From Bacillota bacterium (lineage in GTDB: Bacteria > Bacillota > Bacilli > Bacillales_A > Planococcaceae), in NCBI GenBank assembly GCA_051750505.1, contig JBNJJS010000003.1, forward strand, positions 238,715-302,714: DNA of 64,000 nucleotides, written 5' to 3'. Positions within the stretch are counted from its first letter, which is position 1. Every line of letters starts with the position of its first letter. Both the position numbers and the translations under genes were made by a program. Under the pieces are notes generated by a model, which saw nothing but the letters and a program-made list of their open reading frames with translations, was not told the DNA's origin and made no database searches. Of this stretch, positions 38,108 through 52,147 are shown piece by piece.

Positions 38108-38175
38108 TTTGGAATGAAGTTGAAAGAAAAAAGTTGCATTGCTCCTTTTCTTGAAGTAAACAGAATTAAATTAGC

Positions 38176-38582
38176 GAGAGGTTTCATGTGAAATTGTTCC
38201 TAAGCATTGATTTGATTGTCATCTTAGTATTCGCCGCCCGGCTTTGGGTTGGCCTTTGGCAATTTCGTTGTGTGAAGAGTGTTTAATCAGCTCTGCTTCT
38301 GCATACAGTTGCCGGCTAGCGGGGAACTCGCTTACTGGATAAGTTTGGAATAGATAGTGAGGGTTTACTTGTGAAATTGTTTCTGTGTTCTGTTCGAACT
38401 TCACTTGAATAGTCGCCGCCGTGCTTTGGGTTGGCCTTTGGCAATAAGCCAGAAAGAACGTCTGACTTATTGCGTCGGCTCACCCCTTTACGCTCGGCGG
38501 CTTGGAGATTTCGTTGAGTCTGGTGTGTTTAATCAGATCTGTTTCTTTAGGCAGTTGCCGGCTATTAGGGGAATTGCTTCCC
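38176..38582. repeat. Degenerate tandem duplication (units ~38176-38335 and ~38358-38582)
   Basis: Shared blocks GTGAAATTGT, TCGCCGCC, GCTTTGGGTTGGCCTTTGGCAAT at offset 182-183; ATTTCGTTG, GTGTTTAATCAG, CAGTTGCCGGCTA at offset 246. Confidence 0.9.
38413..38503. repeat. Structured element with AAGAACG-loop hairpin (family 2)
   Basis: Nested stems GCCGCC/GGCGGC, GGGTTGGCC/GGCTCACCC, GCAATAAGcCAGA/TCTGaCTTATTGC. Confidence 0.7.
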
Positions 38583-38760
38583 AAGATGAAGCACCTGACT
38601 GGCCAGTTCTTGAATTGGAAAGATTGTTATTTTATTTAGCGGTTGAAGACCGACGTGACTTCATTCTCTGACCTGGTTGAAGCAAGCTCCAGAATATGAT
38701 GCATCTCCAGACCTTCAGCTGATTGAACTAAAAAAATTAACTTCCACTCTAAAACTAGAA

Positions 38761-38882
38761 GACGGAGTGGAAGGGGGCTGACTCCTGAGGGACCGCGCGG
38801 GCTGGCGAGACAAATGTGTCGCGCTCTTCGGCACATTGGCTCAACACCCGCCCCTCGGAAAGCAGCCCCCTGAAACGCAGTC
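38761..38882 (+). repeat. Structured dispersed element, family 1 copy A
   Basis: GACTCCTGAGGG...GAGAC...GGCT...CCCTCGGAAAGC closed by AGGGGGCTG/CAGCCCCCT and two GNA/GNA loops. Confidence 0.82.
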
Positions 38883-38963
38883 GAATAGCGGAAGCTATTC
38901 TATTCACTTCTTTTATATTTCAACACTCTTTACATTTCACTATCATATTAATATTCAATACAC

Positions 38964-38997
38964 AAAAAAGCCGCCAGAAAATTTCCCTGGCGGCTTT
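38964..38997 (-). terminator. leuS terminator
   Basis: AAAGCCGCCAG/CTGGCGGCTTT with A-run on the + strand. Confidence 0.8.
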
Positions 38998-39008
38998 CAT
39001 TTCATTAT

Positions 39009-41482: not shown

Positions 41483-41700
41483 ATAAAAAATCCCGCCCCT
41501 TAAACTAAGGGACGGGATTTTTCCCGCGGTACCACCCAAATTAGCGCTCAGGCGCTCAACTTGATTCCTTAACGCGGAAAACGGCGCAATCATTGCGCAG
41601 ACTCCAAGGCGAGTTCAAACATCCTGCATGCCGGCTCGCACCATCCGCCGGCTCTCTTTTATGCATTGTATGTCCTACTGCTCCTCTTCACGGCCATTTG
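41483..41700 (-). promoter_or_regulatory. T-box riboswitch (Leu)
   Basis: GGGTGGTACCGCG near 41525-41537, terminator at 41485-41521, specifier CUC at 41611-41613; promoter TTGCAT-N17-TAAAAT at 41712-41740. Confidence 0.92.
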
Positions 41701-44800: not shown

Positions 44801-44842
44801 CAGCTAAATTTAAAAAGGGCTATGCCATAAGTTTCTAAAACG

Positions 44843-44883
44843 AAATAACCGGAGAAAAAGAGATTCTTTTTCTCCGGTTATTT
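44843..44883. terminator. 19-bp inverted repeat terminator after ytqB
   Basis: AAATAACCGGAGAAAAAGA-gat-TCTTTTTCTCCGGTTATTT. Confidence 0.8.
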
Positions 44884-44925
44884 TAATTGTGAACTAACTT
44901 CTTTAAACTTTTAGGATTCACAACA

Positions 44926-45050
44926 GCAGATGGGAATGGAGACGGTGACTCCTGCGGGAACAGCACGAGCTGAAGACCCTGGACTGAGCGCAGCGAGGGA
45001 AGCGGCTGAAGCCGTGCCCGCGGAAAGCGTCCGTCGTAATGGACATCTGC
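44926..45050 (+). repeat. Structured dispersed element, family 1 copy B
   Basis: GACTCCTGCGGG...GAAGAC...GGCT...CCCGCGGAAAGC closed by GACGG/CCGTC, two GNA/GNA loops and GCAGATG/CATCTGC. Confidence 0.82.
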
Positions 45051-45124
45051 CATCTCTTTTGGATGCAAAAAAAGGGCTGCCCAAAAAGCGCATGTTTCAT
45101 GCACCTTAGAGACAGCACCTTTTT

Positions 45125-46159
45125 CTATTTCTCGACAGGACCTTCGAGAACAATTTTCCCGATCGTCTTGCCTGACATCAATTTTCCGTAGGCTTCTTTC
45201 AAGTTTTCCGGATTGACCGGCGCCATCGTCTCATTGAGCGTCGACTGGACCTTGCCGCTGTCTGCCCACTCTGACAGTTCATTCAATAAATGATGCTGCT
45301 CGATCATGTCTTCTGTCTGGAACATCGAGCGCGTATACATCAACTCGTAAACAAAGGTCACGCTTTTTCCGAACAATGCCGGAGCAAGCGGTTCAAACGC
45401 CGGCAGGATCGAGCAGATTTTTCCTTGCGGCCGGATTGCTTCGGCCATGCCTTCCATATGGTCATCGGTATTGGTCAGGCAGAAGATATAGTCCACGCCG
45501 TCAATATCCAGTTCCTTCAATTGAGGCAGCAAGTCCTGGTGATGGTTAATCGTGTGGTGGGCGCCGTGATTTTTGGCCCACTCGACCGTTTCCTGACGCG
45601 ACGCTGTTCCGATTACGGTGAGCCCTGCTAATTTGGCGATCTGCGTGGCGATTGATCCGACACCGCCTGCAGCGCCGATAATCAGGATGTTCTTGCCTTC
45701 ATTGTCCTGCGGGTTTTTCGATATGCCCAAGCGGACAAACAGGGCTTCCATTGCGGTCAATCCCGTCAATGGCAAGGCGGCTGCATGCGCAAAATCCAAG
45801 TTTTTCGGTTTGTGGCCGACGATGCGCTCATCAACCAAATGAAATTCGCTATGGCCGCCTGCACGGACATTGGTGCCGGCATAAAATACTTCATCGCCTT
45901 TTTTAAACAAGGAACAATCGCTTCCGACTGAGACCACAACACCCGCGACATCACGGCCGACGATCGTCAAGGAATCGTCGTCCGGTTTTTTCGAATCACG
46001 CGTTTTGTAATCGGTCGGATTCACCGATACCGCCTTTACCTCCACGAGCAAATCGTGTCCTTTTGGCTCAGGCTTGTCCAATTCCACCGCTTCGAACTGA
46101 GGCGGTTGTTCCGTATTTCCGGGTTTATAAAATCCAAGTGCTATCATTTTCGAAGTCAA
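45125..46159 (-). CDS. MDR-superfamily quinone-reductase-like oxidoreductase (zinc-binding ADH family)
   Basis: VSVNPTD, GRDVAGVV, IIGAAGGVGS; catalytic Zn cysteines absent; TTG start likely. Confidence 0.88.
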   Translation of the reverse strand: MTSKMIALGFYKPGNTEQPPQFEAVELDKPEPKGHDLLVEVKAVSVNPTDYKTRDSKKPDDDSLTIVGRDVAGVVVSVGSDCSLFKKGDEVFYAGTNVRAGGHSEFHLVDERIVGHKPKNLDFAHAAALPLTGLTAMEALFVRLGISKNPQDNEGKNILIIGAAGGVGSIATQIAKLAGLTVIGTASRQETVEWAKNHGAHHTINHHQDLLPQLKELDIDGVDYIFCLTNTDDHMEGMAEAIRPQGKICSILPAFEPLAPALFGKSVTFVYELMYTRSMFQTEDMIEQHHLLNELSEWADSGKVQSTLNETMAPVNPENLKEAYGKLMSGKTIGKIVLEGPVEK

Positions 46160-49888: not shown

Positions 49889-50398
49889 ATGATCTATCCA
49901 TATAAAGACAAATCACCAAAGATTGACAAATCGGCATTCATTGCTGATTATGCGACCGTCACCGGTGACGTGACGATCGGCGAGAACTCCTCTGTATGGT
50001 TCAACACAGTCATCCGCGGCGACGTCGCACCGACGGTCATCGGGAAAAATACCAATATTCAAGATCTATCGATGCTCCATCAAAGTCCGGATAACCCGCT
50101 CATCCTGGAAGACGATGTCACGATTGGCCATCAAGTGACACTTCATAGCTGCACAGTCAGAAAAGGCGCTCTGATCGGCATGGGCTCGATCATTTTGGAT
50201 GGTGCTGAGATTGGTGAAGGAGCATTCATCGGCGCAGGAAGCCTCGTTGCACAAGGGAAAAAAATCCCACCGGGCACATTGGCATTCGGCCGTCCCGCAA
50301 AAGTGGTGCGTGAACTGAACGAGGCGGACAAAAAAGATATGGAACGCATCATCCGAGAGTACGCAGAAAAAGCCGCTTATTATAAATCACTTCAATAG
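49889..50398 (+). CDS. ytoA: Gamma-carbonic-anhydrase-family hexapeptide-repeat protein YtoA
   Basis: IRGDV, NIQD..MLH, IGHQVTLHSC. Confidence 0.92.
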   Translation: MIYPYKDKSPKIDKSAFIADYATVTGDVTIGENSSVWFNTVIRGDVAPTVIGKNTNIQDLSMLHQSPDNPLILEDDVTIGHQVTLHSCTVRKGALIGMGSIILDGAEIGEGAFIGAGSLVAQGKKIPPGTLAFGRPAKVVRELNEADKKDMERIIREYAEKAAYYKSLQ

Positions 50399-50447
50399 AA
50401 AAAGGTTATGACGCCTTTTTCACAATAAAAAACAGTGAGTAGTCCCA

Positions 50448-50575
50448 GTATTTGGAGAAGCGTTCGCTCGACTCCTGTGGATCAGCGAGGCGACCGAGAC
50501 CCCGCAAGGCGCATAGCGACTGAGGAGGCTTGGGCGCGAGCCCACGGAAAGCGAGCGATAAGCTTCGGAAGATAC
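50448..50575 (+). repeat. Structured dispersed element, family 1 copy C
   Basis: GACTCCTGTGG...GAGAC...GGCT...CCACGGAAAGC closed by TCGCTC/GAGCGA, GAAGC/GCTTC and a GGA/GGA loop. Confidence 0.82.
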
Positions 50576-50601
50576 GACTTAGTATCTTTTTCGATAAACT
50601 A

Positions 50602-50635
50602 GAAAAAGCAGGCGGAAAATATCCGCCTGCTTTTT
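50602..50635. terminator. Bidirectional terminator downstream of metK
   Basis: AAAAAGCAGGCGGA/TCCGCCTGCTTTTT. Confidence 0.83.
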
Positions 50636-50636
50636 A

Positions 50637-51833
50637 TTATGCGTTAGCCTGTTGTTTCAAAGCATCCGCTTTGTCTGTGCGTTCCCACGGAAGGTCAACA
50701 TCCGTGCGGCCGAAATGGCCATAAGCCGCTGTCTGTTTGTAGATTGGGCGGCGCAGGTCGAGCATCTTGATGATGCCGGCTGGGCGCAAATCAAAGTTCG
50801 CGCGTACCAATTCGATCAATTTGTCTTCGCTGACTTTCCCTGTTCCGAACGTATCGACAGCAATCGATACCGGATGTGCCACGCCGATTGCATAGGCTAG
50901 CTGCACTTCACATTTATCGGCAAGCCCAGAAGCGACGATGTTCTTCGCCACATAGCGGGCTGCATATGCGCCGGAACGGTCGACTTTCGTCGCGTCCTTA
51001 CCGGAGAATGCTCCCCCGCCATGTCGTGCATAACCGCCGTACGTATCGACGATGATCTTACGGCCTGTAAGCCCTGCATCACCTTGAGGTCCTCCGATGA
51101 CGAAGCGTCCTGTCGGGTTGATGAAGTATTTGGTTTCAGCGTCTAGCAGTTCAGCCGGCACGACTTCATTGATGACGTATTCCTTCAAGTTGCGCTGGAT
51201 TTGCTCTAGGCTGACTTCTGGATGGTGCTGCGTCGAAATGACGATTGTATCGACACGCACTGGTTTATTGTTCTCATCATATTCAATCGTTACTTGCGTT
51301 TTGCCATCAGGGCGCAAATACGGCAAGATTTCTTCTTTGCGCACTTCTGCCAAGCGGCGTGCGAGTTTGTGCGCCAGGCTGATCGGCAATGGCATCAATT
51401 CTTCAGTTTCGTTTGACGCATAACCGAACATCAAGCCTTGGTCGCCTGCTCCGATTTCATCCAATTCCTTATCGGTCATCTGGCCTTCACGCGCTTCGAG
51501 TGCCACGTTGACGCCTGCAGCGATATCTGCCGACTGCTCATCGATCGCTGTCAACACTGCGCTTGTCTCGGAATCGAATCCGTATTTCGCGCGTGTATAG
51601 CCGATTTCTTTAACTGTCTGGCGGACCACTTTCGGAATGTCTACATATGTGGATGTCGTGATTTCACCTGCGACAAGAACGAGTCCTGTCGTTACGGTCG
51701 TTTCGCATGCGACACGCGCATTCGGGTCTTCTGTTAGGATCGCATCCAGGATTGCGTCTGAAATCTGGTCGCAAATCTTATCCGGATGGCCCTCTGTTAC
51801 TGATTCTGATGTGAATAATCGACGGTTTGTCAA
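50637..51833 (-). CDS. metK: S-adenosylmethionine synthetase
   Basis: [28 protein letters not shown]; TTG start after AAGGAGG. Confidence 0.98.
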
Positions 51834-52036: not shown

Positions 52037-52147
52037 CTCTTATCGTCCAAGGCATTCGCCTTGCTTCAGGTTGGGCACCATCGCTGCAATTGCAGCAGGT
52101 TGCCGGGTTTCATTGGGCCTGCACCCTCCACCAGCTCGGAATAAGAG
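52037..52147 (-). promoter_or_regulatory. SAM-I (S-box) riboswitch
   Basis: CTCTTAT..GAG..GGTGGAGGG..GGCCC..TGAAACCCGGCAACC...GGTGCC...GATAAGAG; terminator near 51975-52012. Confidence 0.93.

Follow-up and report, generated by a model that had tools for sequence, protein, structure and literature searches.

Probable IS1182-derived MITEs with a conserved structured end-module in a Planococcaceae genome

Introduction

Three intergenic spacers of the DNA analysed here, a 64,000-nt stretch of contig C3 (C3:238715-302714, called the window below; a window position is the C3 coordinate minus 238714), contain diverged copies of a hairpin-forming repeat at 38761-38882, 44926-45050 and 50448-50575, which we call copies A, B and C. 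They raise the question of what kind of element retains a fold under such sequence divergence, and how it came to lie in these spacers. An earlier note on this DNA had offered a structured ncRNA family or a non-autonomous element mobilised in trans, with HUH/Y1 enzymes (RAYT, IS200/IS605) or other transposases to be considered as mobilisers. The evidence assembled here leads to another parent: the copies are quite probably imperfect-palindrome modules of ~140 nt that sit immediately internal to the left inverted repeat (IRL) of a subgroup of the IS1182 family of DDE insertion sequences (IS), and that are carried here by derivatives lacking a transposase gene.

Results and Discussion

Re-reading of the sequence agreed with the coordinates and shared motifs described earlier for the three copies, and the recomputed spans from GACTCC to GGAAAGC were again 84, 82 and 83 nt for copies A, B and C. 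The variable stem position N/N' does hold A-T (38788/38855), C-G (44955/45020) and T-A (50478/50544), and the closing stems AGGGGGCTG/CAGCCCCCT, GACGG/CCGTC and TCGCTC/GAGCGA are unlike in sequence and all pair. The constant ACUC/AAAG internal loop is present but smaller than it had been drawn, since its U pairs with the first A after GG. This pairing follows from a GACGCC...GGCAAGC variant seen in 11 of 36 copies of the same genome: the two positions change jointly, being U-A in 25 copies, G-C in 11 and broken in none, so that the U of GACUCC must pair with the first A of GGAAAGC. In the N/N' column of these 36 copies each of the four Watson-Crick pairs occurs, and a single copy is unpaired.

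All three window copies form a single long hairpin that is far more stable than chance would give (z against shuffled sequences is -4.4 for A, -3.4 for B and -4.5 for C), and the reverse strands fold more poorly. The module reaches beyond the limits given in the earlier note and adds two purine-rich 3x3 loops of the GGA/GGA type followed by a 7-bp outer stem. Measured from outer stem to outer stem, the ~140-nt module of copy A occupies 38749..38893, that of copy B 44918..45057 and that of copy C 50439..50583, all on the + strand. Our covariance model R1 scores them at 84 bits (E 2e-22, full model 1-144), 105 bits (104.8 bits, E 9e-29) and 85 bits (85.4 bits, E 8e-23), respectively.

R1 was built from a MAFFT alignment of 29 sequences, 26 of them from other genera, with a structure of 43 pairs. 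In this alignment 83.9% of the cells are paired, compared with 36-43% in slid controls, and covariation amounts to 0.338 against at most 0.10. Alignment A4, which consists of 74 R1 matches (window and loci) aligned to R1, yields 90.8% paired cells against 36-47% in slid controls and a covariation of 0.514 against at most 0.089; being fitted to the model, it inflates the pairing counts, and the independent MAFFT alignment agrees in direction. Compensatory changes were found at 39 of the 43 pairs in 74 sequences from many genera, which bears out the earlier claim that selection acts on the fold. The cross-genus consensus reads GUUGAUU-GGA-GC-GGA-stem-GACUCCUGCGGGA...GAGACCCC...GGAGGCUC...CCCGCGGAAAGC-stem-GGA-GC-GGA-AAUCAAC.

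The three copies match no family of Rfam 15, a check that the earlier note had proposed: a scan of the window at the gathering threshold returned T-box and SAM matches only, and an E-value-mode scan of 38600-39000 gave nothing relevant. Both matches are ordinary leaders on the minus strand, a T-box at 41505-41700 (125 bits) upstream of an 803-aa leuS-like gene and a SAM-I riboswitch at 52037-52147 (66 bits) upstream of a metK-like gene. We also compared the conserved loops by eye with the consensus patterns of K-turn, loop-E and hammerhead motifs, all of which they misfit; a resemblance to the hammerhead core, CUGAGGAG...GAAA, was dropped as type A copies are without the motif.

A simple pattern detected 49 copies in the 3.30-Mb, 37-contig genome, in subfamilies that differ in their flanks, and the covariance-model scan suggested in the earlier note, run with R1, raised this to 74 copies. 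All 18 sampled congeners contain the module, at 7 to ~100 copies per genome. Across Bacilli, R1 located it in 79 of the 301 genomes scanned, which cover 31 of the 123 genera; the distribution is patchy and includes all 25 genomes of the window's family within this set. With one genome scanned per species, true homologues were found in Virgibacillus, Planococcus, Sporosarcina, Metabacillus, Fictibacillus, Rossellomorea, Peribacillus, Neobacillus, Cytobacillus, Gracilibacillus and others, although the loose pattern used in this cross-genus scan was right for only about 26 of 120 loci. Unannotated copies occur on plasmids of Priestia, Peribacillus, Niallia, Sporosarcina, Paenibacillus and other genera, and one Priestia plasmid match falls under an annotated 'hypothetical protein'. 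Nine modules were scored inside short ORFs of about 100-290 aa by crude length-based ORF calls; the repeat makes up the greater part of most of them; these look spurious, and the repeats may thus seed spurious hypothetical proteins in annotations.

Within the genome, the copies prefer gene 3' ends. Convergent spacers hold 26 of 62 copies (42%) compared with 18% of all intergenic regions, whereas divergent spacers, which contain promoters, hold only 2 (3%) compared with 19%. Relative to the neighbouring genes, solo copies show no strong orientation (21 sense, 13 antisense), and relative to replication there is a weak bias, with 26 of 71 copies on the G-rich strand (p 0.03).

Comparison of orthologous loci, likewise proposed in the earlier note, revealed empty sites in congeners for all three window copies. 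Together with terminal inverted repeats these empty sites uphold that part of the earlier reading which took the repeats for non-autonomous elements mobilised in trans; the HUH/Y1 mobiliser attached to it does not stand, as discussed below.

Copy A belongs to a composite, putatively IS1182-derived repeat of ~770 nt (38164..38929, + strand), every position of which has 15-60 paralogous BLAST matches. Reiterated units of ~247 nt (about 38262-38582), each starting with a sequence resembling a terminal inverted repeat, AGAGTGTTTAA, are followed by a linker and then by the module. The composite ends in what we read as a terminal inverted repeat, TTCAACACTCT (38919-38929), an 11-mer that is the reverse complement of the left terminal inverted repeat of the type-C elements described below. 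It is multi-copy in its own genome and in congeners, two of which, G001 and G018, have an empty site at this locus.

The ~247-nt units (window 38164-38582) form a multi-copy family of their own with up to ~60 paralogous matches per position, and both in this genome and in congeners they build tandem arrays of 2-4 that end in a type-A module. A long hairpin flagged earlier at 38413-38503 lies inside such a unit. Tandem Repeats Finder missed these diverged units beside copy A, and BLAST found them. The arrays recall IS1272L, for which a 'tandem duplication of the left side including IRL' has been described (PMC5678879).

Copy B lies on an insertion of ~313 nt (44812..45124, + strand) that replaces a single bidirectional terminator of four congeners. 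The spacer measures 30-47 nt in G005, G012, G014 and G010 compared with about 308-313 nt in the window, and by sequence comparison the congener terminator AAAAGAGCAGCGTGCATGTGCACGCTGCTCTTT is gone from the window. The gene that follows copy B has TTTCTCGACAGG as its final codons (45125-45136, read on the + strand), and the first 11 bases of this stretch are identical to the start of the IS and MITE terminal repeat TTTCTCGACAGCCTG. Since the same codons are present at the empty sites of the congeners (L137-L140), they predate the insertion, and the identity may be due to chance or may reflect a target cue.

Copy C is carried by a 195-nt insertion (50405..50599, + strand), a type-C MITE (full length ~238 bp) truncated at its 5' side, with a diverged right terminal inverted repeat, TCTTTTTCGATAAAC, at 50585-50599. 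The insertion is absent in G012, G014 and G010, where the stop codon TAG of the ytoA-like gene runs straight into the terminator AAAAAGCAGGCGG...CCGCCTGCTTTTT. In G005 the element is present in its full-length form and the entire 36-bp terminator is duplicated, with one copy on each side. In the window, the 9-mer TAGAAAAAG, which comprises the stop codon and the start of the terminator, lies to the left of the insertion (50396..50404, + strand) and recurs at 50600-50608; the left copy is what remains of a terminator that had been duplicated. The target itself starts with the copy of TAGAAAAAG on the right and is a bidirectional Rho-independent terminator at 50600..50638 between the ytoA-like gene (+) and metK (-), for which our terminator scan placed the stem at 50603-50635.

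Type C comprises 29 units of ~238 bp in this genome, with imperfect inverted-repeat ends CAGAGTGTTGAAGAAGTC ... TTTCTCGACAGCCTG; the MITE units as a whole measure 238-375 bp and are without a transposase gene. Direct repeats of 22-36 bp flank 17 of the 29 type-C copies and reach at least 28 bp in 15. Each such repeat comprises a Rho-independent terminator in full or for the most part, and the terminator differs from locus to locus. Where it is duplicated whole, staggered cutting at both feet of the hairpin is implied.

Genome G066 contains at least eight practically identical copies (L188-L195) of another MITE of 330 bp, in which the ends GAGGCTGGGACA are followed by the module and then by a strong terminator of its own. 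The near-identity of the copies points to a recent burst, and their ends match those of the insertion sequences in G114 and G212 described below. One of these loci, L190, retains the remnants of a nested or tandem insertion.

The parent family is indicated by C25, a contig of the window's own genome that consists of one complete 1,661-bp IS. Its reverse complement presents, in this order, the IRL CAGGCTGTCGAGAAAC, the module reading outward, ~60 nt, the transposase gene tnp and the IRR, and its ends (CAGCTTGTTGAGAAACTC / ...TTTCTCGACAGCCTG) are homologous to those of type C. The tnp product contains the domains DUF772 (PF05598, 9e-28) and DDE_Tnp_1_6 (PF13751, 1e-28) and matches the NCBIfam IS1182 model NF033551 along its entire length in two pieces separated by a frameshift (207.6 + 249.5 bits, model positions 10-179 and 243-487), which places the transposase in the IS1182 family. 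The core of copy B (44940-45033) is 88% identical to the module of this complete IS (C25:1523-1615). The absence of a mobiliser gene noted earlier is thus correct for the window, but an IS1182 element lies elsewhere in the genome. Judging from their sequences, we take the window derivatives to be MITEs or solo IS-end composites in which the module reads outward 5'→3', antisense to tnp.

C25 also supplies an argument against this explanation: its tnp loses the reading frame at an A6 run, around nt 780 in the reverse complement, and C25 is the sole complete IS of this genome. The break may be due to a programmed frameshift or to an error of assembly, or the gene may be a pseudogene. As C25 was assembled as a separate contig, the IS is probably present in more than one copy. 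No large element bounded by type-C ends was found in this genome, and type C is only 61% identical to the module-plus-IRL end of C25 (103 of 170 aligned positions), from which it follows that the true parent IS of type C is not in this assembly.

Five further genomes, drawn from four families, show this arrangement of module and IS (G114, G221, G212, G070 and G300). Among 15 IS1182 copies sampled in other genomes, four have the module in the place and orientation seen in C25 and 11 are without it. In G114, G221, G212 and G070 the module is antisense and roughly 80-105 nt upstream of the tnp start. G114 carries a complete IS of 1,966 bp with ends GAGSYTGGGACA, which has a promoter-like site for tnp between module and gene and a bidirectional terminator between IRL and module. 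In both G114 and G212 an IRL-proximal terminator is combined with an inverted repeat that covers the Shine-Dalgarno sequence, and in these two as well as in the G066 MITE a hairpin plus T-run lies outward of the module beside the IRL. In the staphylococcus-like genome G070, the left end shows 83% identity to elements on S. aureus and S. epidermidis plasmids that bear the annotation IS1182-like ISSau3.

G300 differs in having modules at both IS ends in inverted orientation, one immediately upstream of a gene whose product starts ...LVPxDHLVRKIExxIDF and the other past the end of this gene, just downstream of the transposase stop codon and in sense orientation. The unit is bounded by CAGAYTGTMGACAAA repeats and duplicated terminators. 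Two loci of this genome (L208 on G300:C2 and L209 on G300:C34) hold a mini-IS with both modules and both ends and an in-frame-looking internal deletion, which fuses the first ~35 transposase codons to the last ~90. The G300:C34 copy is without the left terminal hairpin and has the duplicated target terminator in its place. Module pairs in minus-then-plus arrangement, 15-350 nt apart, are frequent, and from their arrangement look like G300-type elements minus the transposase. One such pair in the window's own genome (C7:136637-137113), with the modules 138 nt apart, is preceded by the end of one gene and followed by the beginning of a permease-like gene (MKEIVGADTKVKN...); it is arranged like a two-module IS that has suffered an internal deletion and sits in a 5' leader region.

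Over the 301 Bacilli genomes, the module and IS1182-family transposases do not co-occur beyond chance (counts 44/35/116/106; odds ratio 1.15, p 0.69). This counts against our explanation, as does the lack of the module in most sampled IS1182 copies, and the argument for IS1182 parentage is carried by physical linkage. The 35 of the 79 module-bearing genomes that have no IS1182-family transposase are accordingly MITE-only genomes.

This linkage also bears on the mobiliser proposed earlier. A REP- or PATE-like single-strand element moved by an HUH (Y1) transposase of the RAYT or IS200/IS605 type would suit a long palindrome with a preferred strand, and two Y1_Tnp matches are indeed encoded in the genome. 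Neither of them (C21:11085 and C2:342232) adjoins any module, and the module forms part of the left end of DDE IS1182 elements. HUH elements are not known to carry terminal inverted repeats or long target duplications, both of which are present here. Finally, the weak replication strand bias is opposite to that expected if the hairpin formed on the lagging-strand template. Taken together, we consider an HUH mobiliser hardly credible.

The ncRNA alternative would make the module a free-standing host family, a regulatory or protein-sponging sRNA that is merely carried by transposons. Its conserved loops and covarying stems over 31 genera, several GGA and AGGAGG motifs and the fact that no Rfam family claims it would all fit such an RNA. 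However, the module is physically part of IS ends in six genomes, its presence at orthologous loci differs between congeners, and it varies from 7 to about 100 copies within one genus. It is also found on plasmids of many genera and is spread patchily over no more than a quarter or so of the genera scanned. Simple consensus scans of two elements, one complete IS and one window copy, revealed no outward promoter-like site. Without a promoter-like site in these two elements, a fixed orientation or a steady copy number to speak for it, the earlier suggestion of a structured ncRNA family finds no positive evidence, and a host RNA seems very improbable to us.

We therefore return to IS1182-derived elements and their movement. 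An IS1182 transposase supplied in trans would have moved the MITEs, and it would recognise hairpin-forming DNA rather than a particular sequence. Such hairpin-directed insertion would explain why copies are found at gene 3' ends and between convergent genes. Insertion takes place at Rho-independent terminators, which are thereby either duplicated whole, giving the direct repeats of 28-36 bp, or replaced.

Precedent comes from IS1272, a member of the IS1182 family that inserts into hairpins and confirmed terminators with no preference for primary sequence and deletes part of the target hairpin or replaces it, with no target duplication (PMC4923244, PMC5678879). The elements described here share with IS1272 and ISSau3 the IS1182-family transposase, terminal inverted repeats of 16 bp and hairpin-forming terminators as targets, and copy B resembles the published 'IR-replacing' events (PMC4923244, PMC5678879). 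Unlike IS1272, most type-C MITEs and the G300 IS copies duplicate the entire terminator (22-36 bp, mostly 28-36 bp), which counts against our explanation to the extent that published IS1272 insertions are without target duplication. The transposition mechanism of the IS1182 family is itself listed as unknown (PMC6199540).

As for a function of the fold, every module is oriented with its 3' end toward the tip of the element and hence lies on the strand whose 3' end is transferred. This outward strand gives the more stable fold in 61 of 70 copies, and the GGA/GGA internal loops are purine-rich and stabilising on this strand only. The same fold is furthermore kept in MITEs with two unrelated kinds of terminal repeat. 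Strand stability, purine loops, the lack of an outward promoter-like site in the two scanned elements, the orientation and the shared fold together favour a cis-acting structural role in transposition. With lower confidence than for the parentage, we suggest that selection keeps the fold as a cis-acting part of the transposon. Its most likely role would be that of an outward-strand structure, either single-stranded DNA or an extruded hairpin, that a hairpin-recognising transposase recognises during transpososome assembly; an outward transcript or an insulator role is less likely.

Several of these observations could also speak for a role at the RNA level inside the transposon, in which the outward strand would be a small structured RNA or a read-through 3' end. 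It might control transposase expression in the manner of the IS10 RNA-OUT or act as an insulator, stabilise the host mRNA at a terminator that has been hit, or serve as an RNA cofactor of the transposase. The better folding and the purine-rich loops of the outward strand agree with this, as do the hairpin plus T-run beside the IRL in G114, G212 and the G066 MITE and the right-end module of G300, which would be in the 3' UTR if transcription extends so far. G:U pairs exceed A:C mismatches 90 to 47 on the model-fitted alignment and are equal to them on the MAFFT alignment (40 vs 36), which renders the twofold excess suggestive only. The two scanned elements offer no outward promoter-like site to drive such an RNA, the location of the promoter-like site in G114 probably leaves the module outside the tnp mRNA, and solo copies lie both sense and antisense to their neighbours. 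On balance, a function as RNA appears unlikely, though not implausible.

A more specific variant, which we regard as quite doubtful, is that the module is a transposon-encoded structured nucleic acid, outward RNA or single-stranded DNA hairpin, needed as cofactor or recognition structure by the IS1182 DDE transposase in its unusual structure-directed attack on terminator hairpins. If true, it would account for the retention of one fold by MITEs whose terminal repeats are quite different. RNAs occur in the non-coding ends of IS110 and IS605 elements, which offers a loose comparison.

In the literature that we searched, there was no description of a conserved covarying module of ~140 nt or of its MITE families. 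The repeats resemble bcr1, ERIC/IRU and Correia/NEMIS elements in being 100-300 bp long, intergenic, multi-copy and strain-variable, with compensatory changes that keep a hairpin (PMC3184786). Of these, bcr1 (~155 bp) is confined to the B. cereus group and flanked by direct repeats of 5 bp (PMC3184786). We rejected a bcr1-type MITE for the present family, in which duplications are mostly 28-36 bp, at least 31 Bacilli genera are covered and the parent IS family is identified.

A structured non-coding segment between inverted repeat and transposase gene is further shared with the left ends of IS200 and IS10. The regulatory hairpins found there include a read-in terminator, sequestration of the ribosome binding site and RNA-OUT. 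The module differs from these in its far greater length and in its position, upstream of the putative tnp promoter and clear of the tnp start, and it is kept in MITEs that have no transposase to regulate. A further lead concerns the Bacillus subtilis 168 genome, for which Kunst et al. 1997 reportedly mention a '190-bp element repeated 10 times'. This repeat is said to be intergenic, to be described with compensatory changes and to occur also in related Bacillus. The likeness is one of description (intergenic, repeated, compensatory changes) and serves as a lead only; neither this 190-bp repeat nor MITEs of Geobacillus or interspersed repeats of Bacillaceae turned up in our literature searches.

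Conclusion

The three repeats are thus best described as IS1182-derived MITEs and related derivatives with a previously undescribed conserved structured end-module and, in many family members, terminator-length target duplications. The choice of hairpins as targets by IS1182 elements is unusual (PMC4923244, PMC5678879). In one subgroup, the deeply conserved, covarying module of 140 nt at the left end provides a concrete cis element to mutate, and the large natural MITE families accompany it with copies that each record a target. The covariance model allows annotators to label tens of copies per genome in many Bacilli, copies that are now unannotated or read as spurious ORFs of ~100 aa. For the organism itself, dozens of terminators in this genome have been duplicated or replaced, and 3'-end formation of the neighbouring genes may be affected.
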